A DNA stretch of 64,000 nucleotides from a virus (IMGVR_UViG_3300029319_000006:64001-128000); one strand, 5' to 3'; positions 2,863 to 28,689 are shown, numbered from the stretch's first letter. The notes: generated from the letters alone by a model not told the origin. A program made the numbers and translations.

Positions 2863-4830
2863 CTATCCTAATGCGACTGAGAACGCTATTGTCTGAGCTC
2901 TTGTTGAAAAATTTGAAGCATCTGCAGAATCTCCTTTATCCCCTTTCGGTCCTCTTTGTCCTATTGATGTATAAATTTGCCAATTACTATTTATATAGAT
3001 GAATTCAATAATACTTTGACCTAAATCTAGAACAAAATTTTCTGCAAAACCTTCAATTGTAGAACCATTTCTATTGACAGTAACTGAATTTGTTGAAAAA
3101 TTAGCAACGTCAATTAATTTTACATAATCACCTGTTTGTGGATTTGCTGGTAAGGTAACAGTAAAACCTCCTCCAGAAGTATTTAATGCATATCTACCTG
3201 CATTTACAGCTGTAAAACCTGAAGTATATACTACGTAATTAGATGAAAAAGCTGCAAAGTCTGAATCAAAACCTAGATATGTTCCTCTTAATTTACCAAA
3301 ATTCCAAGTAGCTAATTCCCAATCAGTACCACCAACATTAATTGTTTGATCCGTTGGTGTACCACTATCAATACCATCCTGAACTAGATTACTAAATGCA
3401 TACCACTCACCATTATCAGCATCTCTAAAAAATCCAGCTCTTCTAATTGTTGTTCCACCATCTTTTGAATATCTACCAACAATACCAATATCAACTGTAT
3501 CTGCACTATTACTATCTGCAACTTTAATTAAGGAGTTAGTAACAGAAAGATCTGCTTGAGCATTTGATGTTTGAGTACCTGATACTGTTAAGTTTCCATA
3601 AACAACCACATCATTATTTACTGACATAGCATTAAATTGTACTGAGTCAGTAGTTCCTACTGGTTGTCCAATTGAAATTTGTCCAGCTCCACTTAAAGTA
3701 ACACCAGTACCTTGAGAAAAATGTGATCTTACTTCTGCTGGAGAAGGACCAACGTATGAAATAACTCCTGTAGAATTATTATACGTCATAGAACCATCAC
3801 CACCACCATCACTAACAGATATTGCTCTTTTAGCAGCAGAATCTGCTCTTGATGTTGTATAATATAAATTTGATCCTTCGGTTACATCTGTTGTAAATAT
3901 ACTTGCATTAATGTAAGAATCAACTCTAGTATCAAGATAATATAAATTAGTACCTTCAGGTAAATCTGTAGTTGATCTAGTTCCTAATGATGCAGCAGAT
4001 AATGTACCTTGTAGTTCTCCAGCTAATGCTTTTACATTGCTTGCTGCAATAATATCTTCACCACGTATATTCTTTCCAGCACCTATTCCTCCTACAGTAA
4101 CAATGGAACCTGATGTTTGAGTTGCTGCTTCTGTTGCATCATTTGTAGATATTCTTCCAGTATTACTAATTGTAATTAAATCATCAGCAGCAGAAGGAGG
4201 TGATAAACTAACTGGATTTTTTCCAACATTTCTTATAATATTAATTTGTGAATTAGTACCATCTAATCCAATAACTAATTTATTGCTTGCACTGTTTCCT
4301 CTTGTTCCTATAATATGATTTTGTTGATTCTTAACTCCTAATACTAAACCTGATCCATCTAAAGAGTCTTTAGATATAAAGGACAACAGAGCTTGTGTAC
4401 TATCTCCAAGATTCGTATCCATATTAAAAGATACACCACCAAACTGTTGACCAAACATAGGAGTAGAGTCTATAATAGGATCTACAATAGTTTTATTGGT
4501 AAGAGTTTGTGATCTTGTAGTTCTAATGTAAGTAGGAGTGAGAGGATCTAAGAAAGCACTATCTACTTTTACAGTAATAGCAGAATCAACTCTAGCTGTT
4601 GTATAATATAATTTAGTATTATGTTCAGTTAAATCAGCTGTATTTTTAAGAGAAAAATCACTATCGAAACCACCATATGCTCCTGTTAAACCTCCAGTAA
4701 TATTAGCTGTACCAGAAACAGTCATGTTACCAGTAACTACTGAATTTCCTCCAACAGTAAGATTGGTACCTATAGTAGCACTATCTCCTACAAATAAACC
4801 TTTTCTTACTTTAAAATCTTTAACTGCCAT
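2863..4830 (-). CDS. Tail fibre-like structural protein
   Basis: G/S/T-rich; TDLxEGxNLYY repeats; LNTSGGGFTVTLPANPQTGD fibre module; short Gly-X-Y stretch; C-terminal IAFSVALG. Confidence 0.75.
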   Translation of the reverse strand: MAVKDFKVRKGLFVGDSATIGTNLTVGGNSVVTGNMTVSGTANITGGLTGAYGGFDSDFSLKNTADLTEHNTKLYYTTARVDSAITVKVDSAFLDPLTPTYIRTTRSQTLTNKTIVDPIIDSTPMFGQQFGGVSFNMDTNLGDSTQALLSFISKDSLDGSGLVLGVKNQQNHIIGTRGNSASNKLVIGLDGTNSQINIIRNVGKNPVSLSPPSAADDLITISNTGRISTNDATEAATQTSGSIVTVGGIGAGKNIRGEDIIAASNVKALAGELQGTLSAASLGTRSTTDLPEGTNLYYLDTRVDSYINASIFTTDVTEGSNLYYTTSRADSAAKRAISVSDGGGDGSMTYNNSTGVISYVGPSPAEVRSHFSQGTGVTLSGAGQISIGQPVGTTDSVQFNAMSVNNDVVVYGNLTVSGTQTSNAQADLSVTNSLIKVADSNSADTVDIGIVGRYSKDGGTTIRRAGFFRDADNGEWYAFSNLVQDGIDSGTPTDQTINVGGTDWELATWNFGKLRGTYLGFDSDFAAFSSNYVVYTSGFTAVNAGRYALNTSGGGFTVTLPANPQTGDYVKLIDVANFSTNSVTVNRNGSTIEGFAENFVLDLGQSIIEFIYINSNWQIYTSIGQRGPKGDKGDSADASNFSTRAQTIAFSVALG

Positions 4831-4842
4831 AGTTCACTTTCC

Positions 4843-7800
4843 CTATGAGATTATTTGTTTAACTGGTTTAATATTAACTGTTCCCATCCCAGCTGCTCTT
4901 GTAAATTGTAATCTAATATTTGCTCCAGATACATCTGCAGATAATGTTCCTATATCACTATCATTTTCAAATGAACTTACCATACCATATTCAGCAAAAG
5001 AAACTGTTGACTTATTGTAAGTAACAAGTACCTTGGATACTTGTGATGCATCTATAACATCTTCTGACATATGAACTGTATACTCTATAGACATAAAATC
5101 TGAGTTGTGAGGAGTAGTATCAACAATAACTCCAGATCCAGATGTAGCTTGTACAAGTGTTGGAGTTGAACTTATAGATCCTAATGTATTAACTAAACTA
5201 TTTACTGTAGGACTTGCAGATGAATCAATATCTATTCTTCCTCCTGCAGTTAATGTAATACCATTACCTCCAGAAAAATGAGCTTTAACTTCAGCAGCAC
5301 TTGGTCCTGTATATGTAAATTTTCCAGATGCTGAATCATATGTCATAGATCCATCACCACCAGCGTCTATTAAACTAAACGCTTCTCTAGATCTCTTTTT
5401 AGTATAATCACTATCAAATAATGTAGTAGTAAAATTTCCACCATCAGCAGTGTTGATTGCAAACACTCCTGTAGCTGAATCAAAACTAATATTACTAATA
5501 CCAGCAACATCAATAAGACTTGCACTATCTATTTGACCTTGAGCATTTATTTTTATTCTTGGAATTTTAGTTCCTGATCCATAATGACCAGCTACCACTC
5601 CAGTGTTAGTAATACTTAAAGTATTAGATGCAGAATCAAAACTTAATCCTGTACCATTTAATGTAGTTTCATCTAATGCATCATTAAAGTCTGAATCAAA
5701 ATTAGCCTTTGTATAAATTGTTTCTACATCAAAGGAAAATCTTCCTAATGAACTATCATATGATAAATCTCCTCCTGCAGAAAAATAACTTCTTGGATTA
5801 TTACCTAATGATCCTACTAGAATTGTTCCTGTTGCATCAGGTAATTTTATAGTTCTTGCAGCAGTTGGACTATCCCAATCTAAAATACATTCATGTATTG
5901 AATTTTTATTATTATTCCATTCTAGATATTGATCTCTATGAAATACTATTCTATTATCATGGAAAACAGTATTAAGATGTATTCCTTCATCTTCAACAGA
6001 AATACTATTACCCATGGCATTTCCATGAGTAGTACAATAATATAATAAACTATCTGGTGCATTTAATGGTACAGCAAATACAACAGAAGCTCCTGGATTT
6101 CCAGCTACACCATTGACAGTAACACCAGTTGTATATGGATTTCCACTACCATCTTTAAAAGCTAATGGATGAGTACCATTAGTTCCAGCACTTTGATCAA
6201 ATGTATATGTAACACCTCTTTTTAGAGTTATAACTGGATTAGTTACACCATCTAGTACAAATTTGTTACCACCACTGCTTATAACTGTAACCACAAAAGT
6301 AGTTGAACCTGAAAAAGCACCTGATTTATTTACATTTAATTCAATACTACCTTCTTCTGATCCATTAGTAGTAGTTATAATAGATCCATTTATTGAACTA
6401 TATAATTGACTATTTCCTGAATCATCTTTTCCATAAAAGTTAATTCTTCCTAAAGTGTCTCCTGGAAGAGGAGAAACAGAAGTTCTATAAAGATCAAAAC
6501 TTGGAGATGCAATCCCTGATGCTTCATCAGAAATTAATTCCATATTAGTAAAATCACTAAATTGGTTTCCACCTTTTACCTTTAAGGATTCTTTACCACC
6601 AATAGTAAATTTAACTTCATCATCAGAACTAACTTCCATAATTGTATCACTATCAGCATCAAGAATAAATTGATTGCCTTTGATATTAACAGAACTATTT
6701 CTAATAATTTTACCATTTCGTCCAGCAGCAAGATCTTTATCAATAAAGTATAATGATAATTGAGATGAATCTATACCAAAAACTCCATTACTATCTTTAG
6801 TAACAGGAGAAGTTGTTGAAAAATGAGATCTTACTTCTAATGCAGTTGGACCATCATATGTAATAACACCAGTTGTAGCATTATAATTTAATGCTCCATC
6901 CCCCCCATTATCAGTAACACTAATAGCATTCTTAGCATCACTATCTGCTCTTGTAGAAAGATAATATAAATTTGTTCCCTCTGAAACATCTGATGTACTA
7001 TGAAAAGAAAGAAGATTAATATCTCTTCTTAATGGTCTATTGAATACCCAAGCTGCATCACTATGACTGTATATTAATGAAGCTCCAGATCCACCTAAAG
7101 TTAATCCACCATCATTACTAGCAGCAGAGTCTACAGCTGAATCGGCTAGTACTATATTTTTATCTTGTAAATTAACAGTAGTGGAATTAATCTGTGTTGT
7201 TGTTCCTTGTACTTGAAGGTTACCAAGAATTTTAACTGAACCAGTATTAGCATTATAAGCAGCTGGATCAATAATTAATTCAGCAGGACCTCTTAATGCT
7301 CCAGTTAATGTCACTTGGTTGAAAACTGGATTGGATGCAGAATCTAAAGGTTGTGGATTTTTGAAATTACCAGTTGTACTATCATAAAGTAAAGAATTAC
7401 TTGCAGAAAAATGTTTTCTTGTTTCATCTGCACTTGGTCCAGTGTACGTAAATATAGCATTGACACTATCATAAGAAAATGATCCATCACCTCCAGCATC
7501 ATTAGCAGAAAAAGCTGGTTTAACTGCTGCAATAGCTCTAGCATTAGAAAAATATAAATTAGTAGAACCTTCAGCTAAACTATCTGTAGTATATGCATCT
7601 AAAGTTGGAAAAGCTGATAATATAGTTCCTGTAGATAATTTTAAATCTAATCTACCTAATGATGGTTCATATCCAAAAGAATCAACTGTATTAGCTAATA
7701 CATTACTAGCTCCAGTAACAATACCTTTACTGTTTACTGTTATTAATGGAATTTGTGTTCCAGAACCAAATGTTCCAGGAGTAATTGCTTGTATTGGAAG

Positions 7801-8148
7801 TTTTATACTTGCTGGACGAGGAAATGCTTGACTATCAGCTTGAAAATCTGCACTATCAAATGTAATAGCGTGTTTTAAGTTGTCTTTTAATACTTGTCCT
7901 GCAGGATAAAAACCAAATTTTTGCCTATCAGAATCCCATCTTATTAAGTAAGAATAATTTCCTGGAGCAAACGCTTGACCTGATGCAATAGAATCAGATC
8001 CAGCTTTTGCAAAAAGCATTGCTCCATCTACATCATCTAAACCAGTTAAATTTCCATTAGAAACTTGACCAACACCGACAGGCCTTCCAATAGTAACTTT
8101 TTTTATAATAGTATTTTTCTTAATACTAGCATTAGCATTAGTTGCCAT
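4843..8148 (-). CDS. Long tail fibre-like protein with repeated modules and a cupredoxin-like domain
   Basis: Three DxGGDGx(3)Y...YxGP(S/T)AxExxxHFS modules; two GxxGSGTxIPxIxxNxxG motifs; YYCTTHGNAMG motif. Confidence 0.75.
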   Translation of the reverse strand: MATNANASIKKNTIIKKVTIGRPVGVGQVSNGNLTGLDDVDGAMLFAKAGSDSIASGQAFAPGNYSYLIRWDSDRQKFGFYPAGQVLKDNLKHAITFDSADFQADSQAFPRPASIKLPIQAITPGTFGSGTQIPLITVNSKGIVTGASNVLANTVDSFGYEPSLGRLDLKLSTGTILSAFPTLDAYTTDSLAEGSTNLYFSNARAIAAVKPAFSANDAGGDGSFSYDSVNAIFTYTGPSADETRKHFSASNSLLYDSTTGNFKNPQPLDSASNPVFNQVTLTGALRGPAELIIDPAAYNANTGSVKILGNLQVQGTTTQINSTTVNLQDKNIVLADSAVDSAASNDGGLTLGGSGASLIYSHSDAAWVFNRPLRRDINLLSFHSTSDVSEGTNLYYLSTRADSDAKNAISVTDNGGDGALNYNATTGVITYDGPTALEVRSHFSTTSPVTKDSNGVFGIDSSQLSLYFIDKDLAAGRNGKIIRNSSVNIKGNQFILDADSDTIMEVSSDDEVKFTIGGKESLKVKGGNQFSDFTNMELISDEASGIASPSFDLYRTSVSPLPGDTLGRINFYGKDDSGNSQLYSSINGSIITTTNGSEEGSIELNVNKSGAFSGSTTFVVTVISSGGNKFVLDGVTNPVITLKRGVTYTFDQSAGTNGTHPLAFKDGSGNPYTTGVTVNGVAGNPGASVVFAVPLNAPDSLLYYCTTHGNAMGNSISVEDEGIHLNTVFHDNRIVFHRDQYLEWNNNKNSIHECILDWDSPTAARTIKLPDATGTILVGSLGNNPRSYFSAGGDLSYDSSLGRFSFDVETIYTKANFDSDFNDALDETTLNGTGLSFDSASNTLSITNTGVVAGHYGSGTKIPRIKINAQGQIDSASLIDVAGISNISFDSATGVFAINTADGGNFTTTLFDSDYTKKRSREAFSLIDAGGDGSMTYDSASGKFTYTGPSAAEVKAHFSGGNGITLTAGGRIDIDSSASPTVNSLVNTLGSISSTPTLVQATSGSGVIVDTTPHNSDFMSIEYTVHMSEDVIDASQVSKVLVTYNKSTVSFAEYGMVSSFENDSDIGTLSADVSGANIRLQFTRAAGMGTVNIKPVKQIIS

Positions 8149-8162
8149 GCTCTCTCCTTAAA

Positions 8163-8510
8163 TCATCTTGTAACCGACGGGTTAACTATTATTTGACCTT
8201 CTAAAACTCTTTCAATAATATTATTACCATTACTATCTTGATTTGTAATTTCAACATCATAAACATATCTACTAGCTGTAAAAGAAGATGTTTGTTGATT
8301 AGTAAGTGTTAAGTTCAATATACCTGATGATCTTGGTGCTTGAAACATAACAGAAAAAGAAGTTGCAGAATCATTACTATGTGTTCTTCTAATTTTAGAC
8401 GCTGCAGTAAATCCTGTTAAATCTTTTACTGAACCATTTTGATTTGCTAATTCTAATTTTAGAGTGACATCAGAGCCTTGATCTATTGAAATATCTTCAT
8501 ACTGCGCCAT
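8163..8510 (-). CDS. Small virion/baseplate-associated protein
   Basis: IDQGSD...DLTGFTAASKIR...RYVYDVEI...RVLEG...VNPSVTR pattern typical of fibre-adjacent genes in marine T4-like phages; late promoter upstream. Confidence 0.6.
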   Translation of the reverse strand: MAQYEDISIDQGSDVTLKLELANQNGSVKDLTGFTAASKIRRTHSNDSATSFSVMFQAPRSSGILNLTLTNQQTSSFTASRYVYDVEITNQDSNGNNIIERVLEGQIIVNPSVTR

Positions 8511-8545
8511 TTTTAAAAAACTCTTAGTTTAGTTACTTTTTCCAT

Positions 8546-8553
8546 TATTTATA
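8546..8553 (-). promoter_or_regulatory. T4-type late promoter TATAAATA
   Basis: Exact TATAAATA on the minus strand about 36 nt upstream of the 8510 start. Confidence 0.75.
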
Positions 8554-9226
8554 AGAAATATTTTTCTAATCCTTGATACATGTAAGATTGTTCCTGACAA
8601 ATTAAACAAAGAGTTTTTCTAGGATCATGTGCCAAATGATTTTTCACATACTTGTAGGGTGTTGCATCATTTTTCCATCTGAAATAATAATCATAATCAA
8701 ACTTTAAGTATTTACAAATTGATAAATGATTGTAAGAAAGATATCTATCCAAACCACTATATTTTATCATATAGTAATCTTTATTATCAATAAAGTTTTG
8801 AAATACATGTGTCAAGGTTTTTGGATACATTCCAATAACAGAAGTGTTTATTTTTGCATCAAACTCCCATAAAATATCCTGATGATGTTGAAGATCAGGA
8901 TTAATAGTAAGAATTTTGTTTGGTTGAATTCTTTTCAATATAGAATCTATAGAATTTTGTATTACAATGTCTAAATCAAAATATAAGGTTGGAGAATTCC
9001 AAGGTAAGTTAAACAGTTGAATCTTCCACCAAAAAGATTCTAAGTCTAAACTTAAATCCAACGGAATTGGTCTTAGTTTCCAATCTAACAAATTATCATC
9101 TGTTAAGCAATAAAAAGAAAATGGTAGGGAACAATTTTTCTCTACCATTTTATAAAGTCGATCTACTCGATCTGAAGTATACTTTGTACCGTATTTAATG
9201 CATACTATATTATAATGGGTTTTCAA
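8549..9226 (-). CDS. Glycosyltransferase, GT-A fold
   Basis: CIKYGTKY N-terminus, CLTDD, WWKIQLF, YFDLDIVI (DxD), INTSV; paralog of 52884..53579. Confidence 0.75.
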   Translation of the reverse strand: MKTHYNIVCIKYGTKYTSDRVDRLYKMVEKNCSLPFSFYCLTDDNLLDWKLRPIPLDLSLDLESFWWKIQLFNLPWNSPTLYFDLDIVIQNSIDSILKRIQPNKILTINPDLQHHQDILWEFDAKINTSVIGMYPKTLTHVFQNFIDNKDYYMIKYSGLDRYLSYNHLSICKYLKFDYDYYFRWKNDATPYKYVKNHLAHDPRKTLCLICQEQSYMYQGLEKYFL

Positions 9227-9896
9227 GATCTTCTATGACCTCCTCCCAAAAATTATCTGCATCTTTAAATACGTATGCTACAGTTATTCTATAACAATTT
9301 GTATAAGCTGCATGATAACAAATTTTTTCTGGTTCCATATAGCTACCAAAATAAGTCATTTTACAATTCCAACCTTTTTGATCCTGTACACGAACTCTTT
9401 CTTTTTTATCTAAATCCCAATAATCAAACCAACCATCTCCTGTTTCAGACCAAGAACAAATAATGTTGTACCCAGGAGCATTAGCATTATTGTGCCAGGA
9501 AATAAATCCTCCAGGTGGATATGCAGCATTCAAAGCATTGTTGTTTGCAGATATAAAAGAAATAAGTTTAGTATTTAAATCTTTAGATGCATTACATATA
9601 TCTTCATGTGCTCTTTTATTCATAGGAAGTTTTTCTTGATCTTGCCATTTAAGTCCTGTATATCCTCTAAGAACTGCAGGAAAACCATCGTGAGCTCTAC
9701 CTTCACGCATAATTTTATTCATATAATCATCAGACACCCAATCTTCTTGTTTTTGTTCAAAATTACTTATTTGTGCTTTATTAGCAATAGCTGGTTTTCC
9801 ATTATCTTGAATAGTCATTAATTTATCTTTATATTCATCCAATATATCAATAAATTCTTGATTATTTAATTTTATATCTCTCACTGGTGTCATCAT
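9210..9896 (-). CDS. Putative 2OG-Fe(II) oxygenase/cupin-fold enzyme
   Basis: YPPGGFISWHNN...YHAA...R spacing resembles the double-stranded beta-helix HxD...H...R motif, here with HxN. Confidence 0.5.
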   Translation of the reverse strand: MMTPVRDIKLNNQEFIDILDEYKDKLMTIQDNGKPAIANKAQISNFEQKQEDWVSDDYMNKIMREGRAHDGFPAVLRGYTGLKWQDQEKLPMNKRAHEDICNASKDLNTKLISFISANNNALNAAYPPGGFISWHNNANAPGYNIICSWSETGDGWFDYWDLDKKERVRVQDQKGWNCKMTYFGSYMEPEKICYHAAYTNCYRITVAYVFKDADNFWEEVIEDLENPL

Positions 9897-9897
9897 T

Positions 9898-10704
9898 TTA
9901 CAAAATTCCTTTCTCGCTATACTTATCCATTCCAGAAGAATAATGATGTATTATAGGATGTTTAGAAGCATAAACATTTGGTTGAGTCCAGGGTAATCCA
10001 AAAGAACTATAATAATTCCATCTATAATTTTCTTCAAAAAATTTCCATTTGAGTTCTTTATATTTTGGTGAATGCCACAACAACCACCATAAAGTAAGTT
10101 GATCCCAAATCCAAAAACTTTTAGGAACTTCTTGTATCTCTATTGGTAATTCTATTGCAGCTCTTTGTTTTAAATATACATTATACCAATCCATCATAAA
10201 TTGTTTTACTAATGGATTAGTATTATTATATAAACAAACTCCTCCACAATGAGTAAGATGTTGAGGATTAGAACCAGTATATCCATTATCTAATGTATTT
10301 TCCCCCCATGACCATTCAGCAAAATGTCTAGCACCCTCTTTAGTAAGATTAACAAATCTCATATCATAGTTTTGTATTTGATCAAAAACTGTACATATAT
10401 CTTCATGGACTACTTCCATATCCACATCTAAGTACATAGTAATATCATATGGAGAATTTGCCATACCCCACATTTTTTCTCTGTTAGTACTTCCAGGTGT
10501 TGGTAAAATTTTATCGTAAGGAGTAAATAAAGTTTTTAAATTTTCATCTTCTAAAAAAAGTTTTTCTGTAAACAGAGTAATTTTAGCATCTGGCATATAA
10601 TCTAAAATAGTTTCTGCTAAAAAATATCCAGCTTTTAAAAAACTTTCAAATTTTGTAGCTACAAATACAAATCCTTTACTTAGATTCTTCTGATTGTTCA
10701 CCAT
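9898..10704 (-). CDS. Glycosyltransferase, GT-A fold
   Basis: REKMWGMANSPYDITMYLDVD (DxD), GGVCLY, WDQLTLW, RWN, IIHHY. Confidence 0.75.
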   Translation of the reverse strand: MVNNQKNLSKGFVFVATKFESFLKAGYFLAETILDYMPDAKITLFTEKLFLEDENLKTLFTPYDKILPTPGSTNREKMWGMANSPYDITMYLDVDMEVVHEDICTVFDQIQNYDMRFVNLTKEGARHFAEWSWGENTLDNGYTGSNPQHLTHCGGVCLYNNTNPLVKQFMMDWYNVYLKQRAAIELPIEIQEVPKSFWIWDQLTLWWLLWHSPKYKELKWKFFEENYRWNYYSSFGLPWTQPNVYASKHPIIHHYSSGMDKYSEKGIL

Positions 10705-11134
10705 TCATATTTTCCATTAATAATATAGTTGCATAAGCATTCAATTCAATAGTGTTTTTTGCTTTTCTTATTTTACTTTTTAATTTTCTATTATCAGATG
10801 CTTTTATTTCAGGTATCTCAAAAGCTGCTAATTTGTAATTAAAAAGTTCTTCAAGACGTTTAGTTTCCATAAGCTCTTTGTCTTTTTTTATTTTAGCTTC
10901 ACGTTGTTGCTTATGCCTTTTTAATCTTTCTTCTGTAAAAGCATCAATCTGTGATAATGAATTTTGTTTTAAGATTTCTTCATAATCAGTAGATATAACA
11001 CCTTTTTCATCATATTTGGAAACTTTTGCAACGCTAGTAGAAAACGATCCATCATCATGTGTAATATTAAGACGGACTGTCAATCTATCTTTCGCTGCAT
11101 TTTCCCAAAATGGATGTTTCCATTCTTTCTTCAT
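10676..11134 (-). CDS. Hypothetical protein, possibly a chaperone for the upstream fibre
   Basis: Charged helical ORF tightly coupled between the Tyr-rich protein and a glycosyltransferase. Confidence 0.45.
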   Translation of the reverse strand: MKKEWKHPFWENAAKDRLTVRLNITHDDGSFSTSVAKVSKYDEKGVISTDYEEILKQNSLSQIDAFTEERLKRHKQQREAKIKKDKELMETKRLEELFNYKLAAFEIPEIKASDNRKLKSKIRKAKNTIELNAYATILLMENMNGEQSEESK

Positions 11135-11143
11135 TTTTATCTC

Positions 11144-14101
11144 CTATGATATTCTAACGTATAATGTATAAGTTTCTTCAGTTCCACTAGATGCTTGTAT
11201 TGTAGTTCCTTCAAAGTCGGTAAGATATTCTTGTATATATCCTGTTTGATAATCTTGCTCGTAATAAGCAAGAAAGTTAGCTCCATCAAAAAATCCTTCA
11301 AAATCTCCAGCATATAGTTGTACATATGTAGCAACATACTGTTGTGTCTCTCCAACAGTTTCATAAACTGTTTCAAATGTTCCCGTATAATCTCCAGCTA
11401 TTGTACTTATATATCCTGTTTCATAAGGTACAGATTCAAATGTTCCTACATAAGTGCCTGTATAAAGTTTCGTATAATTAGCTTGAAAATAATTGACAAA
11501 ACTTCTTGTATACTGACTAGTGTAATTACGTACATAAGGTGGTCCTATATCTCTAACATAAGCTGGTCCTACTCCTAAATACATCAGACCAGCTGGTTGA
11601 TTCTGAGTATATACTCTTAAATAACCAAAACCAAAATAAGGACTACCAGATCCTGGAGCATACTGACCTCCAGTGAATCCTATAGCACCTTGATATTCAT
11701 TTTGATAGTAAACTAAAGGACCAAAACCAGTAGTAAAATAATTACCTGCATCTTCATTAGTATATGCTACGTTTCCAGTACCAGTAAAACTCTGTGTAGG
11801 AAGTCCAGCGTAAGGTTGAAGATTACTAACATAATCGACTGTTCGTATACCTAAAAATATTCTTACAAAAAATGATGAAAAATTTCTTGCACTTCCACTA
11901 TAAAATACTCTTCTACTTACTCCAAGATACGGGAACCCCACTACATATGAAACAACATTTCTATGATATATAGCATCAAAGACAGGCAAACCACCACCTG
12001 TGGCCCCACTTTGAGTTCCAAAAGCACCAGCTAGATCTGTTCCTGATACATAATAAAGTGGCATAATTACAGTTTGACCAGGTAAAGTTGTGTCGCCATC
12101 ATCAAGAAAATGTCTAACTGGATATCCAGTTCCACTAAGATAATTTGGAGATCCAGGACCACCAGGAAAAAATCTACGTGTATAAATTTCAGGACCTTGT
12201 ACATAAACAGGACCCATAGTTATTTGGCGAACATAGAAAGTAGAAACATTTCTAACGTAATAATTAGTACCTAAATAAAATTCTCTTGTATAAGTAGTTT
12301 CATAATTTGGATAATAATCAGGAAAAATATTAGCTCTTGAATAGTAACTTACATAAAAGAACTCTCCAGTAACAAAATATATCATATTGGCTGCACGAAC
12401 ATAATAACTAGAAGCTCCTGTATAAATATTTCCAAAATTACCTGGAGGTCCTGTTACATAATCTCCAGTTTCAGTAGTTCCATCACCAGGTCCAAGATAT
12501 GCTGAAAATCCAGTATATTGCTGGCCCTGATAATAAGCAACAAAATATGCTGTAAAAGGACGTAAAAAAGAACCAGTATAATTTCTTGCATAATTTCTTT
12601 GATATGATTCTTCCACATCTCTTTCATATGTTCCTGTATATGCTCTTGTATAAGCAGGACCGTCTTGAATACCTCCATAAACTTCTTCAAAAGTTCCTGT
12701 ATAAGCAGCTAGATAATCTTTTTGATATAGTGTATCATATGCTTTTAAGTATCCAGTTTCTCCTGGAATATCTGATTCATCACCACCTTCATATACTCTT
12801 GTATATGTTGCTGTATATTGGTTTGTATATCCTCTAACATAATTAATATTAAATGTGTTAGCAAAAGCTGCTACATATGCAACATCAGTTGTAGTTTTCT
12901 TTGTATCGGTAGCAGAACCTTTTGAAACCCATGTACCGGGATCTGTAGGAGCTCCATCTCCAGAAGTCCTTAGTTGATAAGTTCCAATTTTGCTATCTTG
13001 TATTCTTTTCTGAAATAATTTTCTAAAAGTTCTAGTTGATGCAGAATCCAAATCTCTTATACTAAAAAATTCAGAAGCAGCAGCTTCAGATCTATCTTGA
13101 ACAGTAATGGTGTTTCCCATTCCTTCACCATGAATATAACAAAAGTATCTTAAGCCAGAATCTGGAGCTGATGCATCTATTGTTATTTTTACATATCTTC
13201 TTAACTTACCGTTAGATGTTCCTCCTGAACTACGACCAGCATTAAAAGTTGTTGTATTGATATAATCAGAAGCTGAAACAACAGAACCATTTAAGTAATA
13301 TACAACTCCTGTTTGATAAGCTGATCCTCCATTTTTAAAAACTAGAGGGTGATCATCATTAGTAGAATCAGTCTGATCAAAAGTATAAGTGTTAAGTCTT
13401 TGAGCTGTTAAAGAAGGATTTTGAGCTCCATTAAGATAGTAATAATTTCCACTACCTGGATTTGCTACTGTAACATTAAAATTTATCGAATAAGATTTAT
13501 TAATATAAAGAGGAGCAGCAGAAGTTTGAAAAAATGAACTAGCATTACCAGTTCTTTGCCACACTTTATAATTTACAGTTGTACCATCTGTTTGAGTATC
13601 TGTAAATACAGTTCCTCTATCAGTATATCCTACTCCAGGAGATGCTTCAGAAAGTTTATAAGTTCCTAAACCATCATTAGTAAATGTATAAGTTAATGCT
13701 TTATCAATATTAGCATTGAGATCTGATTCTGGTACTTGTTTAAATCCAGTTTGTCCACCTCCATCAACCCACATTAATGGTCTGTATAAAGATAAATCTG
13801 AATCTTCCATAGCATAAGAAGAATCATATCTTTGATAAAGTCTGTAAGTGGTAGAGCCAGAGGTTATGCTTGTTCCAGGAGCTGTACCAACTGGTTCATT
13901 AAAAAATGTATCGGTAAATGTACCAACATCATTATATTTTCTACTACCAATTCTTTTAGTAGTAAGACGACCAACTTCATTAGAATCAGCTAAGCCAACG
14001 TATTCTAATAAATTAAAATATCCAAAATATTTACCGACTTCGGTATCGGTCATTTCTTTGATGCTTGTACCGCTACCGTCTCTTCTAAGTAAATTGCCCA
14101 T
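11144..14101 (-). CDS. Tyrosine-rich repeat virion protein (fibre/spike-like)
   Basis: (Y/F)xxx 4-residue periodicity over long stretches; cupredoxin-like YFCYIHGEGMG; late promoter upstream. Confidence 0.65.
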   Translation of the reverse strand: MGNLLRRDGSGTSIKEMTDTEVGKYFGYFNLLEYVGLADSNEVGRLTTKRIGSRKYNDVGTFTDTFFNEPVGTAPGTSITSGSTTYRLYQRYDSSYAMEDSDLSLYRPLMWVDGGGQTGFKQVPESDLNANIDKALTYTFTNDGLGTYKLSEASPGVGYTDRGTVFTDTQTDGTTVNYKVWQRTGNASSFFQTSAAPLYINKSYSINFNVTVANPGSGNYYYLNGAQNPSLTAQRLNTYTFDQTDSTNDDHPLVFKNGGSAYQTGVVYYLNGSVVSASDYINTTTFNAGRSSGGTSNGKLRRYVKITIDASAPDSGLRYFCYIHGEGMGNTITVQDRSEAAASEFFSIRDLDSASTRTFRKLFQKRIQDSKIGTYQLRTSGDGAPTDPGTWVSKGSATDTKKTTTDVAYVAAFANTFNINYVRGYTNQYTATYTRVYEGGDESDIPGETGYLKAYDTLYQKDYLAAYTGTFEEVYGGIQDGPAYTRAYTGTYERDVEESYQRNYARNYTGSFLRPFTAYFVAYYQGQQYTGFSAYLGPGDGTTETGDYVTGPPGNFGNIYTGASSYYVRAANMIYFVTGEFFYVSYYSRANIFPDYYPNYETTYTREFYLGTNYYVRNVSTFYVRQITMGPVYVQGPEIYTRRFFPGGPGSPNYLSGTGYPVRHFLDDGDTTLPGQTVIMPLYYVSGTDLAGAFGTQSGATGGGLPVFDAIYHRNVVSYVVGFPYLGVSRRVFYSGSARNFSSFFVRIFLGIRTVDYVSNLQPYAGLPTQSFTGTGNVAYTNEDAGNYFTTGFGPLVYYQNEYQGAIGFTGGQYAPGSGSPYFGFGYLRVYTQNQPAGLMYLGVGPAYVRDIGPPYVRNYTSQYTRSFVNYFQANYTKLYTGTYVGTFESVPYETGYISTIAGDYTGTFETVYETVGETQQYVATYVQLYAGDFEGFFDGANFLAYYEQDYQTGYIQEYLTDFEGTTIQASSGTEETYTLYVRIS

Positions 14102-14106
14102 ACTTT

Positions 14107-14134: not shown

Positions 14135-14137
14135 GTG

Positions 14138-17182: not shown

Positions 17183-19081
17183 TTATTTCACATCAACACC
17201 AGCTAAAAATCCATAGTAACTAGTACCACCATTATACGATACAAAAGTAAAAACAGTAACAGCATTTGCAGCTGATGCTATTGAAGGAGCAGTTCCTCCT
17301 GGCCAATCTACAGTTGCAGGCCAAGTTACTCCATTTGCTCCTGTTCCATCTTGTATAATTACCACAGTAAAAGCAGTAACCCCACCAACACCTGGAGAGG
17401 GCACTGATGGATTACTGAATGTAAAAGTAGTTCCTCCACTTTGAACTGTATGTACAAAGAAATTTGAATTATTTAGATCTAAGTCTTGCGTACTATTACT
17501 GCCAAGAGTAGATGTAACTACTGTTTCATGGTAAGATCCTGCTGTAACTCTTGAGGATAAATTAACATAGCCACTGGCATTAGCTGTTACTACTTTACTT
17601 GCTTCAGATGTACCTAGTGAGGTTATATCATTATAGTTAAGTTCTGCACCAGTAGCAGTAACAACCGTTCCTGCATATCTAAGATTTCCTGTTGGTATAG
17701 CAACAACTCCTGTACCAGCACACTGTAATTCCATATCAACATTTTGACCAGATTGAGTATTTGTTGATAATATTACAGTATCAGATCCTACACCAGTAGT
17801 TTGGATCTTTAAAAAATTATCTGCAGTTCCTGTTTTTGAAAAAACAATTCTAGGATTTCCATCACTATCAACAATTTTATCTTGTTCATGCATTGCAACA
17901 TTAACTAATCGTTTATTAGTTAAAGTATCAGAACTTGTTGGTGTTACATATCCAGCAGAAGCATGATTTCCATAACTAAAAGCTGTATCCCAATTTGAAC
18001 TATTATCAGGTATAACAGCATAAACTCCTGCATTATTTTTTTTCAATATACCATTATCAAATGAATCAAAATCAGCATCTAAGAGAGCGGTTGTAGATGT
18101 TGTATAAGCAGAATTCCAATTGGTAGAATTATCACTCACAATAGAATATGATCCAGCTCCACTTCTTTTCATTAAACCATTAGTACTAAAATCAGCATCC
18201 AATATAGAAGTTAATGAAGTTGTATAAGCAGAATTCCAATTTGAGAATGTAGACGGAATACCACCGACAGATAATCCTGATAATCTTGCTGAATCAGTTT
18301 CTCTTATAATATCCAAAGGACCTGTTTTTAGTCCAGCTTGCCATCTATCAGTATTTTCATTAAAATATACTACCGCACTATCAGTACCAGGTCTATCAAC
18401 TGCTAATCCTGGTCTATTTGCATTGTTTACAGCAATACCATCATTTACTACAACATAAGGATCAGCAACACGTTGATTACCAACAATAGTAACACCGCTT
18501 AAAGTAGCACTCGCTGCAACTAAACCACCACTTGCTCTTATTTGACCTGAGAAGACTGCACTATCATTAACTGTCAATGATCCACCTATAGTAGTACTAT
18601 CTAAAGTGGTTATTCCTTGTACATCTAAATTTCCTGTTATTGTACCACTATCTGCTAATAATCGATCAGCATTTAAAGTTCCATCAAAAAATCCATGTCT
18701 CCATTCTTTAGTACTATCTCCAATATCAAAACTATTATCTACGTCAGGAATAATATTTGAAGTAACATCTGCACTAAAAGAAACTGTATCTGTGTCAGCA
18801 TCACCTATTCTTAAGGCTCCTCCAACAACAACATCTCCTTGCATTCTTGCATCACCAACTACTCTTAATTTACCTCCAACTGTAACATTACCAGCAAATG
18901 CAGGTGAACTATCAGCAGCAGTAAATTTTCCTGCAACTTCATTTACAGCTCCTGTAATATTTTTGGAAGTCGTTACTAGAGTAGATACATCACCAACTGA
19001 ATCAATTAATTGATTGTGTCTTAATCTTTGTAAATTAAGATTGTCTGTAATATTAGTATGTGGTATCTTAGAATTAGGCAT
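17183..19081 (-). CDS. Tail fibre-like protein
   Basis: IIPDVDNSFDIG, TLTNK, IIQDGTG...VTWPATVDWPGGTAP fibre modules; internal repeats. Confidence 0.7.
   Translation of the reverse strand: MPNSKIPHTNITDNLNLQRLRHNQLIDSVGDVSTLVTTSKNITGAVNEVAGKFTAADSSPAFAGNVTVGGKLRVVGDARMQGDVVVGGALRIGDADTDTVSFSADVTSNIIPDVDNSFDIGDSTKEWRHGFFDGTLNADRLLADSGTITGNLDVQGITTLDSTTIGGSLTVNDSAVFSGQIRASGGLVAASATLSGVTIVGNQRVADPYVVVNDGIAVNNANRPGLAVDRPGTDSAVVYFNENTDRWQAGLKTGPLDIIRETDSARLSGLSVGGIPSTFSNWNSAYTTSLTSILDADFSTNGLMKRSGAGSYSIVSDNSTNWNSAYTTSTTALLDADFDSFDNGILKKNNAGVYAVIPDNSSNWDTAFSYGNHASAGYVTPTSSDTLTNKRLVNVAMHEQDKIVDSDGNPRIVFSKTGTADNFLKIQTTGVGSDTVILSTNTQSGQNVDMELQCAGTGVVAIPTGNLRYAGTVVTATGAELNYNDITSLGTSEASKVVTANASGYVNLSSRVTAGSYHETVVTSTLGSNSTQDLDLNNSNFFVHTVQSGGTTFTFSNPSVPSPGVGGVTAFTVVIIQDGTGANGVTWPATVDWPGGTAPSIASAANAVTVFTFVSYNGGTSYYGFLAGVDVK
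17990..18245. repeat. Intragenic tandem repeat, period about 120 nt (NWNSAYTT...LDADF...NG..K)
   Basis: Identical 23-mer GTTGTATAAGCAGAATTCCAATT at 18099-18121 and 18219-18241; a third degenerate copy (NWDTAF) near 17990. Confidence 0.85.
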
Positions 19082-20971: not shown

Positions 20972-22186
20972 TTATTTCTCCCTCACAAATAGTCCTACAA
21001 TAAATGTTTGTAAAACTCGATAATAATATCTTGTTGCTATTTTTAGTTCAAACGGTCTTTTTCCATTACCCCATTCTAAACACTCTTTGAATTCTTTATA
21101 AACTTTTTCAGCTGTTCCATTTGCTATGTGTTTACGACCAAGATATCTATAACCTCTTCTCATAGCTTCTCCCCACCATTTATTGTGAAGATTTTTCTTA
21201 CACCAATCAACTGCATTAGCTTTATCACTAGAAAGAAAAGCACCACTAGATACAGCATGAGTAGCTATAACACAACTATTATTTGAAGACTCTTTTCCTC
21301 CATTACCTTTATCACCTTGAACAGCTTCTGACCATGTTTCAGCTATATATCCACCATCACTATGTTTAGCATCTCCTTGTCCAGCTACACCTAATGCAGT
21401 AGCACTAGTACCAGTTCCTGCTTGATTATGATAAGCTAATGAATTATTAATATTTTCTATTGTATCGTGATATGTGTAGGTTCCACTCCAATTTGTAACT
21501 TGATAATACCCATATTCTTTATCATTGCCTCCATCATCATTTTTTGAAGTAGTTGTATTTGGAGTAGCTGTAGGTTGAGCATTAGTAGTAGGAGTTACTT
21601 CAGGTTCTTGCCATACTTGTTCTATTGCTGTATAAGTGTATGATGAAGTAGTACTATATTGATAATAATTTTCATATTGTCCATAACCTTTAAAAATAGC
21701 TGTTCCATAAGATTTACATTTAGCTTTATTTGGAGAGGATATATCAATAGCCATAAAAGTGTGTCCATCTGTATTCAATGGCCAACTTATGTCCGCATTA
21801 CTTTGTAAATAAAATACTCCTCTTAGTATTCCATTAGCAGTTGATGTTACTGGAGTATTTACAGCTCCTCCATTAGTAGCACCACTGTAAGCTAAATTAC
21901 TTGCTGAAGGAAATGATGTAGCATTTACATATTGTTCACCAGGTTCTTTTAATGAAGAATTACCTGATGCAGAAGTGAAATCTGATTCACTATAAGAAGT
22001 ATTTACAAATCTAGTAACTTCTTTATTTCCAAAAAATATCCAATGAGGAATATTAGGTCTTAGTCCGGTAAATTCAAAATATATAAATTTTGGTCTGTGC
22101 ACTGGAATGGGATCATAACCAACTACAGATTCATGTGTTGTTGTTTGATAACCAGTTTTTTGTACAGATACGTCTACATATGGCAT
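20972..22186 (-). CDS. Virion structural protein (DUF4815-like, middle part) with a C-terminal CVIAT domain
   Basis: RPKFIYFEFTGLRPN...FF motif; C-terminal CVIATHA...GYRYLG. Confidence 0.55.
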   Translation of the reverse strand: MPYVDVSVQKTGYQTTTHESVVGYDPIPVHRPKFIYFEFTGLRPNIPHWIFFGNKEVTRFVNTSYSESDFTSASGNSSLKEPGEQYVNATSFPSASNLAYSGATNGGAVNTPVTSTANGILRGVFYLQSNADISWPLNTDGHTFMAIDISSPNKAKCKSYGTAIFKGYGQYENYYQYSTTSSYTYTAIEQVWQEPEVTPTTNAQPTATPNTTTSKNDDGGNDKEYGYYQVTNWSGTYTYHDTIENINNSLAYHNQAGTGTSATALGVAGQGDAKHSDGGYIAETWSEAVQGDKGNGGKESSNNSCVIATHAVSSGAFLSSDKANAVDWCKKNLHNKWWGEAMRRGYRYLGRKHIANGTAEKVYKEFKECLEWGNGKRPFELKIATRYYYRVLQTFIVGLFVREK

Positions 22187-22195
22187 TTTATTTCC

Positions 22196-25165: not shown

Positions 25166-25174
25166 TTTTTATCC

Positions 25175-26569
25175 TCAAAGTTGAACGACGAGTTTTATAT
25201 CGTCTGTACTAGCAGTCGTTCGAGTTTGTGCAGAAGCATTATTAATAAAGAATATTTCACCTGAATATCTGTCTACATCAGGTCTTATGTTATGTTGTCC
25301 TGTTGCAATTGTTCTTGTACTACCCAATCCTTCAACAGTAATTGTTTCTCCTGATCTAAATGGAGTAAATCCTGATGCTTCATCTTGATGATACCATATT
25401 GTAGAATCTTGAATAAAATCTACCCAAGCCTTAGCATTACTGTCTCCTGTTATTTCAACATCATTTGCAAAAGCAAAAGAACTAGAAATTGGTGATGTAA
25501 CTCTAATTTTCTTTAAACAGTTTCCTGCTGTACCTTGAAACTTATTTCTAGATGCACTGTCTACTAATGGATTTTTCCATAATGCTATTTGTCTATAATC
25601 ATTATCAACTATCCAATTACCAGAAACATTTCCTTCTGGTTTAATATGAAACATCATAGCTGAAGCTCTTAAATCATTTATTGGATTAGCTCCAAGACCG
25701 TTACTATCGTGAGCAAAAACTGGAACAACAGTAGCGTTAGTTCCTCCAGGTGAAGTTATTCTTATATTAGCTTGTTTATAACCAGATCCTAAAAATGGTG
25801 ATATGTCTGTGGTTCCAGAACTTTCACCAACTTCTACAGCTGTTATAACACCAGATCCTACAACAGCGTATGCTTTGGCTCCATTTCCATCACCTACTAC
25901 AGTCAAAGAAGTAGTTGCACTGTCATATCCAGATCCACCATTAGTTACTCTATATCCTAAGATTTGGCCAGACACAGCAGCATTTTGAATTGTAAACTGA
26001 GCAAATCCAGGATCAGTTGCTGAAGCAGAATCAACTTTCTTTACAGGCATAAAATTAGATGTAGTAAAAAAGTTTGTATCAGCAGTAGAAATAGAATACA
26101 TAAATTTCCAGATATATCCATCTGCTTCAATTGGTAATGATACATTAGTATGATCTGGTTTAACAGTAGAAACTTGGTTGTTACCTAAAGAATCTTTACC
26201 CACTCTTAAACATACGTATACATTATTTTCTGCTGTTTTTACATAATAAGATGTAGCTGGATGTCCTGTAGAATTATCATTATATTGTGCATATTGTGTA
26301 TTAGTTGTCCAATCTTTGATAGGTACCACATGAGAAAATGCTTCAATAGCTTTTACAGACTGTAAATTATATCTAAACAATCTAGTTTCTCTATCTGTAA
26401 CATTTGGTGTTGGTGCAACATCTGTATTTGCTATAGGATCCCATTGTTGTGATCTACCAACTGCTATATAGTAATTATTATTAGAATCACCAAGTTTTGT
26501 ACCCGTCGCTTCATCAAACAATTGACTTAGAAATGTTCTTTTAATTTTATCTGTAATAATTGCTGTCAT
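25175..26569 (-). CDS. gp8: Baseplate wedge subunit
   Basis: YYIAVGR, NVYVCL, DGYIWKFMY, FMPV, NDYRQI, SGEIFFINN, DDIKLVVQL. Confidence 0.85.
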   Translation of the reverse strand: MTAIITDKIKRTFLSQLFDEATGTKLGDSNNNYYIAVGRSQQWDPIANTDVAPTPNVTDRETRLFRYNLQSVKAIEAFSHVVPIKDWTTNTQYAQYNDNSTGHPATSYYVKTAENNVYVCLRVGKDSLGNNQVSTVKPDHTNVSLPIEADGYIWKFMYSISTADTNFFTTSNFMPVKKVDSASATDPGFAQFTIQNAAVSGQILGYRVTNGGSGYDSATTSLTVVGDGNGAKAYAVVGSGVITAVEVGESSGTTDISPFLGSGYKQANIRITSPGGTNATVVPVFAHDSNGLGANPINDLRASAMMFHIKPEGNVSGNWIVDNDYRQIALWKNPLVDSASRNKFQGTAGNCLKKIRVTSPISSSFAFANDVEITGDSNAKAWVDFIQDSTIWYHQDEASGFTPFRSGETITVEGLGSTRTIATGQHNIRPDVDRYSGEIFFINNASAQTRTTASTDDIKLVVQL

Positions 26570-26581
26570 AATTGTTTCCTA

Positions 26582-27580
26582 TTAAGATACTGTATGTCCT
26601 TCACCACCCATCACATACCAGTTTGTTCCGTCCCAGATAAGTGTTGCTGTATCGAATTGTTGAAATGTTACTCCTGTTGATCCTTGAGGGAATTGAGCTG
26701 CAGTGATACTTAATACTAAATCACCAGCACCTGATTGTCTTATTACATGCAAGTTAAGAGTTTTACTTGCAGGACCATTAGGTAATGTTACTGTACCAGC
26801 ACCACCTTGTAATAATAATAAACTTTTTGTGAGTGATGCAGTATCACCATTTGATAATGTTTCTGAAGATAATCCATATTGATTTATGTTTACAATTCCT
26901 GTACCTTTGGAAGAAATATCTAAACCTATATTAGCGTCTGTGCTTCCAATAACTGATAAACTAGGTGTATTACCATTTGATACACCAGTAACTTTTATTC
27001 TATTTCTTGTGTTTCCTACATCAGTAAATGAAATAACTGGATTGCCTGTAGAATCAGAAAGATGAGTTGTAATTTTAGGAGAGGATATGGTAGGTGAAGC
27101 TAAAGATTTATTTGTTAATGTTTGATTATGAGCTTCCATTACCATTACATCATTACTACCTAAAAGAGGTAAAACAACATTTCTATTTGCTGCCAGATTA
27201 CTTGGTACAAAATTATAATGATGTGATGAATCTAAATCTTTTATTTTAAATCTATCAAATGTAGCACTATCTATAGATGGTTGAGTTAAAGTTTTATTAG
27301 TTAAAGTTTGAGATGCTGTATTTAATGTTACTTCACCAGATGCATTAGGAAAATCAATATTTCTTTCTGCAGTTGGATTTACATGACCAATCTTTGTTCT
27401 AAAAGATGCTCCAATGAAATCTACACCACTATCAGTAAGAGCAGATACACCAGCACCTCCTCCGCCAACTAATGTGTAAAGTTCAGTAAAATTTTCATTA
27501 ATTTTAGTACCAGCAGTTCTTAACGTATCGCCTGTACCATCATTAGCTGAAGTACCAGTATTAATTGTTTGTCTTGCCAT
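26582..27580 (-). CDS. gp9/gp10-like baseplate wedge tail fibre connector
   Basis: ARQTINTGTSANDGTGDTLRTAGTKINENFTELY N-terminal signature; QTLTNK repeats. Confidence 0.75.
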   Translation of the reverse strand: MARQTINTGTSANDGTGDTLRTAGTKINENFTELYTLVGGGGAGVSALTDSGVDFIGASFRTKIGHVNPTAERNIDFPNASGEVTLNTASQTLTNKTLTQPSIDSATFDRFKIKDLDSSHHYNFVPSNLAANRNVVLPLLGSNDVMVMEAHNQTLTNKSLASPTISSPKITTHLSDSTGNPVISFTDVGNTRNRIKVTGVSNGNTPSLSVIGSTDANIGLDISSKGTGIVNINQYGLSSETLSNGDTASLTKSLLLLQGGAGTVTLPNGPASKTLNLHVIRQSGAGDLVLSITAAQFPQGSTGVTFQQFDTATLIWDGTNWYVMGGEGHTVS

Positions 27581-27604
27581 GTTTTATCTCTTTTTTCTTA
27601 ACAT

Positions 27605-27612
27605 TATTTATA
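27605..27612 (-). promoter_or_regulatory. T4-type late promoter TATAAATA
   Basis: Exact intergenic match upstream of 27580. Confidence 0.75.
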
Positions 27613-27621
27613 TGTGTAAAA

Positions 27622-28689
27622 TCAAGGTCCTGTTGGATAATGAGCAGAATCTGCACTATTTGAAGAAGAATCAAACAATGTCCTATATCTATGCTCATCA
27701 AATCTTGGAAGTAGAATAACACCTGATGGTGAATCTCTATCCATTCTAATTGCTGTTGCAGTTTCAGAATCATCCATTAAGAATGAATTAGGTGTAATCA
27801 GTTCTCTAAATGTTAGTGTAGCAGTACTATCCATTATAGTTGTAAGACTTCTTTCTATGTCTTTTTCTACATCTGCTCTAATCATACCAATAGTACCATC
27901 ACCTCTTTGAATAAGTGTAGTATCTACACTACCAAGTAAATTCATATTAGCTATAGTTTCTGTAGAAGTAGTAAATACTGGTTTTGATCCTGGTCCTGAT
28001 TCTCTTAATGATTGAATAACATTACCATTTACTAATTCTAAAACAATTTGAGCTGCTAGATGAGCTCCAGCTGGGTGAACAAATAATTTATAAGCATCTT
28101 CCCATTGTTGTACAGGAATTGCACTTTTTATGAGAATAGACATTACTTGAAATTGTCCATTATCAGTTAAAAACTTTTGAGATTCTGATCCTAATACACC
28201 AGCAGCAGTTTTAATTTGCTGACCTGATGAATTAACACTATCTAAATTATAATCTATAGCAGGACCTACATGAAAAATATTTTCTTTTGGATAGATTACT
28301 TGAGGATCATCATTAAAAAATCCACGGAAGAATTGTTGTATACTATATTTGGTACCTTTAGATCTATATAATTGATTTGAAAACTTTATTGCTTCTCTTT
28401 TATTTAAGAATCCTCCAAATGTAGCATTACCTAATAATAACTCATCTTCTAAAAATTTTAATAAATCTTCTGGAACTTGAGTAGCGTCTCTACTTGAATA
28501 TAAATCATGGATTTGACCAGAAGGTTTTCCAGATGAATCCATATATTCATAATATGCATCAAACAATGCTTTTAACTTAGGATAATCAATACCAAAATAC
28601 TCTGGTAGAATATTATCAACTTCTGCTCTTTGCAGATTTAATAATCTTCTATTAAGATCAGTAGTAGTTTTATCTTGTTCGTATTCCAT
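27622..28689 (-). CDS. Baseplate wedge protein, short gp7-like
   Basis: LPEYF...YYEYM, LYRSKGT...FFR, LFVHPAG; follows gp6. Confidence 0.65.
   Translation of the reverse strand: MEYEQDKTTTDLNRRLLNLQRAEVDNILPEYFGIDYPKLKALFDAYYEYMDSSGKPSGQIHDLYSSRDATQVPEDLLKFLEDELLLGNATFGGFLNKREAIKFSNQLYRSKGTKYSIQQFFRGFFNDDPQVIYPKENIFHVGPAIDYNLDSVNSSGQQIKTAAGVLGSESQKFLTDNGQFQVMSILIKSAIPVQQWEDAYKLFVHPAGAHLAAQIVLELVNGNVIQSLRESGPGSKPVFTTSTETIANMNLLGSVDTTLIQRGDGTIGMIRADVEKDIERSLTTIMDSTATLTFRELITPNSFLMDDSETATAIRMDRDSPSGVILLPRFDEHRYRTLFDSSSNSADSAHYPTGP

Follow-up and report, generated by a model that had tools for sequence, protein, structure and literature searches.

A clade-specific hydrophobic-Asp-Ser-(Ala/Asp) motif in tail fibres and outer baseplate proteins of marine T4-like phages, a candidate site for cytoplasmic serine O-glycosylation

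Protein O-glycosylation directed by a short sequon is known from Bacteroidota, whose general system recognises D-(S/T)-(A/I/L/V/M/T) (PMC8729774, PMC8550257) and modifies exported proteins only, not cytoplasmic ones (PMC8729774). Among phages, glycosylation of mycobacteriophage virions by phage-encoded glycosyltransferases has been described (Freeman et al., 2023, as cited in PMC12801897), and in the host recognition cluster of pelagimyophages, which are marine and T4-like, glycosyltransferase genes, most often of the GT8 family, are scattered through the tail-fibre region (Zaragoza-Solas et al., 2020; PMC7029224). Here we analyse an Asp-Ser (DS) motif concentrated in the tail fibre and outer baseplate proteins encoded by IMGVR_UViG_3300029319_000006:64001-128000, a stretch of 64,000 nucleotides (the window) that corresponds to bases 64001-128000 of a 146,762-bp IMG/VR viral contig and has about 31% G+C. 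An original prediction, made from this sequence alone, had taken DS to mark glycan attachment sites on exposed virion proteins, modified by the transferases of the phage itself.

The source is an uncultured marine T4-like phage, with Phage C48C1, pelagimyophages and cyanomyophages as its closest named relatives. The window holds a T4-like tail and baseplate module, in which gp5-, gp6-, gp7-, gp8-, gp9/10- and gp25/53-like and DUF4815 proteins were recognised, several fibres with assembly chaperones, gp32 and an island of sugar enzymes. It thus resembles the pelagimyophage cluster in having a T4-like structural module whose fibre genes are interspersed with glycosyltransferases, but differs in that PMC7029224 mentions no fibre motif and in that cultured HTVC008M and Mosig have neither the motif excess described here nor the gene for a 208-amino-acid (208-aa) protein that accompanies it.

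Relative to shuffled expectation, DS was in excess in the 1101-aa fibre (27 vs 10.3 expected, z 5.7), the 655-aa fibre (14 vs 5.0, z 4.4), the 632-aa fibre (10 vs 5.2, z 2.3), gp8 (8 vs 2.8, z 3.3) and the 355-aa gp7-like wedge protein (7 vs 2.4, z 3.2). Pooled over these five proteins it reached 66 vs 26 expected (z 8.6), the top of all 400 dipeptides and a 2.5-fold enrichment of Asp directly before the putative acceptor; SD (20 vs 25.8), ES (4 vs 8.2) and NS were not enriched, and DT was depleted in the enriched proteins (13 vs 23.8, z −2.5; DTA 3 vs 2.5). DS was scarce in gp6 (2 vs 3.7 expected) and in the gp5-like protein (1 vs 3.7), and occurred once in gp32 and not at all in GuaC and SqdB. 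The hand counts behind the original prediction were exact for every protein, the predicted excess over shuffles and over SD, DT and ES was borne out, and the concentration in fibres and outer baseplate had been described accurately. The virion-wide glycan coat pictured with it was overstated: capsid-, portal- and sheath-sized proteins had DS at or below expectation, and three fibre-like structural proteins of 981, 829 and 989 aa showed no enrichment.

The true unit is a tri- or tetrapeptide, hydrophobic-D-S-(A/D). DS[AD] was found 29 times vs 4.0 expected, with a maximum of 12 among 2000 shuffles. Both DSA (26 vs 2.6) and DSD (11 vs 2.4) were in excess in the genome's eight enriched proteins, compared with 12 vs 9.4 and 6 vs 10, respectively, in all its remaining proteins. 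At 144 non-redundant DS sites, position −1 was hydrophobic in 49% (background 29%) and position +1 was Ala in 35% (background 8%) and Asp in 20%, so that the context (F/Y/I/V/L/A)-D-S-(A/S/D) noted originally holds. The motifs stand singly, 7 to more than 100 residues apart.

That all this is an artefact of chance, composition, post hoc choice of proteins or a signal in the DNA is very improbable. In an unbiased scan of the whole 147-kb genome (20,959 protein-by-dipeptide tests), DS in the 1101-aa fibre ranked first and DS in the 655-aa fibre seventh; the leading p value (1.1e-5), taken for the 1101-aa fibre alone, nonetheless fails Bonferroni correction and DS occurs 194 times genome-wide vs 183 expected, as an artefact would have it, and the strength of the case therefore rests on the tripeptide context and on replication in relatives. 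The DS[AD] count was never matched by shuffling, the same proteins were enriched, partly at other positions, in genomes only 36–47% identical, and none of 169 non-structural neighbours of GT25 genes encodes an enriched protein. Composition or chance was accordingly rejected on the shuffles and on replication in distant relatives, which effectively refutes the artefact explanation. The Ser codons within DS are mixed (AGT, TCT, TCA), which places the signal at the protein level and led us to reject a DNA motif, even with GAT-AGT making up half of the pairs. As AGT accounts for only 30% of Ser codons in six enriched genes, there is a mild codon-pair bias. Paralogous duplication alone was likewise rejected, since DS still stood at 60 vs 25.8 (p 6e-9) once look-alike sites were collapsed, and gp8 and the gp7-like protein are without repeats.

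More than 40 related marine contigs display the DS excess, and 29 contigs with gp8 35–74% identical repeat the same pattern. Observed/expected ratios in near relatives were 2.4 for gp8, 2.6 for the gp7-like protein and 2.0 for the gp9/10-like protein, compared with 0.16 for gp6 and 0.27 for gp5; the gp6 homologues together hold 11 DS vs 70.7 expected, a depletion not seen in outgroup gp6. Individual DS columns, about 90% conserved against an overall identity of about 55%, were kept in 24–28 of 29 gp8 and in 20–25 of 25 gp7-like sequences, and D-to-N and S-to-T replacements were nearly absent at conserved columns. Among 13 further genomes with gp8 36–47% identical, excess was found in gp8 of 12 and also in fibres, reaching 40 DS vs 10.5 expected in a fibre of genome G019 and 28 vs 9.4 in one of G027. 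In the gp8 tree, all enriched genomes and C48C1 form one clade, split with 100/100 support from the cultured HTVC008M, Mosig, Melnitz and syn9, none of which shows DS excess; sub-clades share some gp8 DS columns, others are private, and outgroups have ES, NS, DA, TS or TT there. The motif is thus protein-level, clade-specific and positionally conserved, and was gained, with the same extended context around DS, in several unrelated folds (gp8, gp7-like, gp9/10-like and fibres). That fibres or gp8 show the excess generally was rejected, since it is absent from those four phages and from Syn33 and CRP-207.

The motif might need no enzyme and be structural, hydrophobic-D-S-(A/D) serving as a capping or turn element (an Asp N-cap with a hydrophobic staple, or an Asx-type turn after a strand) that starts fibre building blocks and outer baseplate loops and that spread via module duplication and lineage preference. 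Its setting would suit such a role: DS lies at strand-to-loop transitions, a hydrophobic stretch (−1 hydrophobic in 43–57%) being followed by D-S, two to three polar residues (+2/+3) and hydrophobic residues again (+5 to +7), which suggests a loop after a strand, and in an AlphaFold2 (AF2) model of gp8 DS falls between strands, in loops, the model being too poor (predicted local distance difference test, pLDDT, 51) to map exposure. Moreover, tandem repeat units in the G019 and G027 fibres often begin with the motif, which keeps the structural explanation alive; the 1406-aa G019 fibre (G019:C1:34070-38290, locus L236), with 24 DSA, consists largely of tandem units of about 43 residues, each with two DS motifs, of types NVLDSxNV and LVDSAYVQ. 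Three motif classes also recur among the window's own fibres, which have paralogous modules in common, those of the 1101-aa fibre recurring in the 655-aa and 434-aa fibres. Phages outside the clade, however, have homologous modules that fold without DS. After the widespread NLYYTxxR fibre module, clade members have DS(A/D) and outgroups DA or NA, and residue by residue DS in the module of the 655-aa fibre corresponds to TA, RS and SN in Roseobacter phage CRP-207 and to DD and DT in cyanophage Syn33, whose proteins with this module show no DS excess; this indicates that the fold does not require the motif. A capping or turn role also sits poorly with parallel gains, at positions that turn over, in non-repeat proteins of different folds, with the near absence of D-to-N and S-to-T exchanges normally tolerated in caps and turns and the depletion of DT, with A or D following DS no more often than background elsewhere in the genome, with the excess left after collapsing look-alikes, and with the depletion in gp6 and gp5, which it leaves unexplained. 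We regard a purely structural origin as somewhat unlikely, and keep it in view because the gene association presented below is a single event and the assignment of the enzyme a weak one.

Parallel gain, exactness, positional turnover, avoidance in inner proteins, dispensability and confinement to genomes sharing an enzyme-like gene set together point to a reader acting in trans, and recognition by such a factor or enzyme is the best explanation of the motif. In form it recalls the Bacteroidota sequon, with three residues as a minimum, Asp directly before the acceptor and Ala often after it, and avoidance of the sequon in some abundant proteins has been taken as selection there too. The resemblance goes no further than form, since Thr is avoided here, Asp is favoured at +1 and the compartment is wrong; the motif is not that sequon, which the original prediction had cited. 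Thr is used as freely as Ser in Bacteroidota but DT is depleted here; 70 of the 144 DS sites have A, L, V, I, M or T at +1 (background 40%), and Asp, second there after the strongly favoured Ala, lies outside that set. T4-like tails and fibres are put together in the cytoplasm, and the Bacteroidota system relies on an unidentified oligosaccharyltransferase, unlike the soluble transferases encoded here; a host Bacteroidota oligosaccharyltransferase was rejected on compartment and Ser/Thr specificity.

Roughly 13 transferase-like proteins had been proposed to modify the motif. About 12 glycosyltransferase-like open reading frames (ORFs) are supportable to some degree, several weakly, and most do not track it. 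Two glycosyltransferases with a GT-A fold lie between fibre genes in conserved synteny, and an aspartyl/asparaginyl beta-hydroxylase (AspH)-like 2-oxoglutarate (2OG) oxygenase adjoins a transferase in many relatives. The fibre operon (8163-14101, minus strand) has the two GT-A genes and the oxygenase flanked by a 985-aa fibre on one side and by the DS-rich fibres on the other, and the order orf152, transferase, oxygenase, (transferase), chaperone is kept in many relatives and in C48C1. For the model of the GT8-like member, the top Foldseek matches were LgtC, glycogenin, LARGE1 and GlyE; sequence searches of the PDB with the fibres and the cassette ORFs gave no match. The cassette is not universal in the clade, being absent from G018, G019 and G020, all of which have DS[AD]-rich fibres, and is therefore not required; it was rejected as the necessary enzyme. 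The GT25-like genes occur in those clade contigs that include the island and are absent from five cultured relatives. They are missing from C48C1, whose DS[AD]-rich fibres weaken their candidacy. Deposited phage records hardly contain their family (one weak match in 50,697), which has relatives on at least 285 IMG/VR contigs. The phrog_1962 transferase family was set aside as well, being found in non-enriched Mosig. The co-occurrence expected between enrichment and transferases thus failed for the cassette and for GT25; it held in full for another gene.

This gene, for the 208-aa protein, was the only one found to track the motif fully. Single-copy and at 44–72% identity, it was present in all 16 clade genomes searched (15 from IMG/VR plus C48C1) and absent from HTVC008M, Mosig, syn9 and Melnitz (0 of 4 non-enriched genomes); in the 50,697 phage records it occurs in C48C1 alone. 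Observed/expected DS[AD] in the structural region was 1.9–6.4 in the 11 carriers scored (G000 and ten of the 16 clade genomes), all of them enriched, compared with 0.6–1.0 in the four non-carriers. The gene usually has transferase genes no more than a few kb away, and here adjoins the sugar-gene island. Its family comprises 1462 metagenome clusters, without Pfam domain or name; close members share an invariant GNGD...CN...CGH...YGFDS and distant ones GNGPS...GCN...SGH...WGxDS. The contigs obtained in looking for distant relatives in other phage types are 1–7 kb long and were uninformative. A profile of the distant members gave the Campylobacter sialyltransferases Cst-I and Cst-II as eight of the top nine PDB matches, at E values of only 0.12–0.35, and HMMER aligned the family motifs onto the corresponding Cst-I/Cst-II motifs; GT9 heptosyltransferase gave no match.

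From these comparisons we infer the modification itself, its sugar nature and the role of the 208-aa protein as the enzyme. DS as a glycan attachment site, the core of the original prediction, survives to the extent that the motif fits a site read by a trans-acting enzyme. We consider enzymatic modification of some kind more likely than not; cytoplasmic O-glycosylation of the serine, which would be the most economical chemistry, is the reading that we tentatively favour. One marine T4-like clade would have installed and kept hydrophobic-Asp-Ser-(Ala/Asp) in its fibres and gp7-, gp8- and gp9/10-like proteins, in loops right after a hydrophobic strand and at the starts of fibre repeat units, where a phage-encoded cytoplasmic enzyme would recognise it and modify the serine, either ahead of tail assembly or while the tail is being built. 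The 208-aa protein, GT42/Maf-like, may start the glycan, and the variable GT-A, GT8-like and GT25-like transferases, with sugar-tailoring enzymes, may extend it, such that the glycan would differ from phage to phage. It is possible, if doubtful in this full form, that the clade runs its own sequon-directed serine O-glycosylation in the cytoplasm, with a GT42/Maf-like starter of about 200 aa, fast-changing GT-A/GT8/GT25 extenders and a phage-specific sugar layer confined to receptor-binding fibres and outer baseplate, and that the 'lipopolysaccharide (LPS) genes' of pelagimyophage clusters serve self-modification.

Besides the poor gp8 model and the motif's place at the start of repeat units, several points weigh against glycosylation of the motif or against the 208-aa protein as its agent. 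All carriers belong to one clade, so that the co-occurrence counts as one event in evolution, and the same distribution may hold for many other genes. The GT42/Maf assignment, a tentative one, lies below every significance threshold: the 208-aa protein matches PF01973 at 11.7 bits vs a curated cut-off of 34.6, and matches at E 0.06–0.22 were obtained for 3 of 14 close and 0 of 41 distant family members. NeuB and a CMP-sugar (cytidine monophosphate-sugar) synthetase had no match in the genome. The pelagimyophage transferases, finally, have been interpreted as modifiers of the host O-chain (PMC7029224), which could hold for part of the sugar island.

What argues for a trans-acting reader applies equally to a site that receives no sugar on its serine, whether through another Ser modification (phosphate, acyl or nucleotide), through beta-hydroxylation of the Asp by an AspH-like 2OG oxygenase of the phage, possibly with glycosylation of the new hydroxyl to follow, or through binding of a metal or partner. 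One such oxygenase stands between two transferases inside the fibre operon, an arrangement reminiscent of the glycosylation of collagen hydroxylysine by a hydroxylase plus GT25, and the 208-aa protein is a putative transferase only. We nevertheless think such a site quite unlikely, given that the oxygenase cassette is absent from the three genomes named above despite their DS[AD]-rich fibres, that AspH-like genes also occur in non-enriched Mosig, that neither a kinase nor another enzyme of modification was observed to follow the motif, and that sugar enzymes dominate the genomic neighbourhood.

Serine O-glycosylation as proposed here would have its closest mechanistic analogues in the Maf, Sdg and Gtf/GT8 enzymes, which glycosylate filament and adhesin proteins in the cytoplasm. 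Maf and GT42 (Cst-I/Cst-II) enzymes are both cytoplasmic and use soluble donors, and Maf puts sugars on Ser/Thr of filament proteins before assembly. The 208-aa family has GNG(P/D)S...CN and then SG...G(F/I)D motifs in the same order as these enzymes, but is similar to them only below significance and much smaller (about 200 aa); furthermore, no CMP-sugar pathway was found in the genome, and flagellin sites have no strict sequon. SdgA/SdgB, which act on staphylococcal Ser-Asp repeat adhesins, and GtfA/B with GT8 enzymes such as GlyE, which act on serine-rich repeat adhesins, carry out stepwise cytoplasmic O-glycosylation of Ser beside Asp (Sdg) or in adhesive-fibre repeats; GT8-like enzymes extend the glycan there, and the transferase embedded among the fibre genes here has GlyE as one of its fold neighbours. 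Their substrates are long uninterrupted SD or serine-rich repeats, unlike the isolated motifs with defined flanks described here, where SD is not in excess. With mycobacteriophages the clade shares phage transferases near structural genes (here two GT-A between fibre genes) and self-modification in the cytoplasm, as it takes place there and is proposed here. The mycobacteriophage system reportedly targets capsid and tail-tube subunits, without a defined short sequon, and thus differs from fibres and outer baseplate proteins with a defined motif in a virion whose capsid and sheath are not enriched; hosts and phage groups are also unrelated.

Should the serines be modified, the motif would be the first protein-modification sequon to be defined in a phage and, if the modification is a sugar, would represent the first sequon-directed glycosylation of a host-recognition apparatus. 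The glycosyltransferases of marine myophages, now taken to remodel the host surface, would then have to be reread, a large unannotated protein family would gain a function, and host range would acquire a new layer, in which a fibre glycan could mask, stabilise or take part in binding. C48C1 (OQ984149), a deposited complete genome with both the motif and the candidate enzyme gene, makes the hypothesis directly testable.

Table 1. Features of the window that bear on the DS motif, with positions counted from its first nucleotide.
Feature	Position	Strand	Remarks
655-aa tail fibre	2863-4830	-	7 of its DS are DS[AD]; contains the NLYYTxxR module
1101-aa tail fibre, richest carrier	4843-8148	-	14 of its DS are DS[AD]; PHROG tail fibre
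Tail-fibre assembly protein	8163-8510	-	PHROG 3304; between cassette and DS-rich fibres
GT8-like retaining GT-A transferase	8549-9226	-	DxD motif; between fibre genes; PHROG 1962; AF2 pLDDT 88
AspH-like 2OG oxygenase, a lead	9210-9896	-	Fibre cassette; Atlas score 0.92
Second GT-A, nucleotide-diphospho-sugar transferase-like	9898-10704	-	Fibre cassette; Atlas score 0.97
632-aa tail fibre	17183-19081	-	Weaker enrichment, partly within beta-helix-like repeats
gp8-like baseplate wedge	25175-26569	-	5 DS columns kept in at least 24 of 29 near relatives
gp9/10-like wedge/fibre connector	26582-27580	-	4 DS vs 1.9 expected here; 49 vs 19.7 over ten genomes
gp7-like wedge protein, 355 aa	27622-28689	-	5 DS columns kept in at least 20 of 25 relatives
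gp6-like inner wedge	28689-30695	-	DS-poor contrast
gp5-like hub/spike	31169-33664	-	M15 peptidase domain; DS-poor contrast
GT25-like copy	48473-49195	+	Pfam PF01755
208-aa conserved protein, candidate motif-reading/modifying enzyme	52265-52891	-	Co-occurrence; remote GT42 (Cst-II)/Maf-like features
Two adjacent GT25-like genes	54094-55868	-	Pfam PF01755
Sugar island	55890-62440	-	Four paralogous GT-A/GT8-like genes, FkbM methyltransferase, two nucleoside diphosphate (NDP)-sugar epimerase/dehydratases
GT25-like copy, fourth in total	62403-63050	-	Pfam PF01755

Three further observations concern neighbouring features. A short collagen-like Gly-X-Y run, RGPKGDKGDS, with Lys at the Y position, lies in the C-terminal part of the 655-aa fibre (about 2920-2960). 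GT25 is the family of the collagen hydroxylysine galactosyltransferases, and the genome encodes GT25-like genes and 2OG oxygenases as well as this run, which may be a second type of modification site. An additional 2OG-Fe(II) oxygenase, of the prolyl-hydroxylase type (PF13640), adjoins gp32 (45086-45652, minus strand). In the 985-aa fibre (11144-14101), YV occurs 19 times vs 7.1 expected (p 1.7e-4), the second strongest protein-by-dipeptide signal of the genome, which suggests a Tyr-containing repeat.

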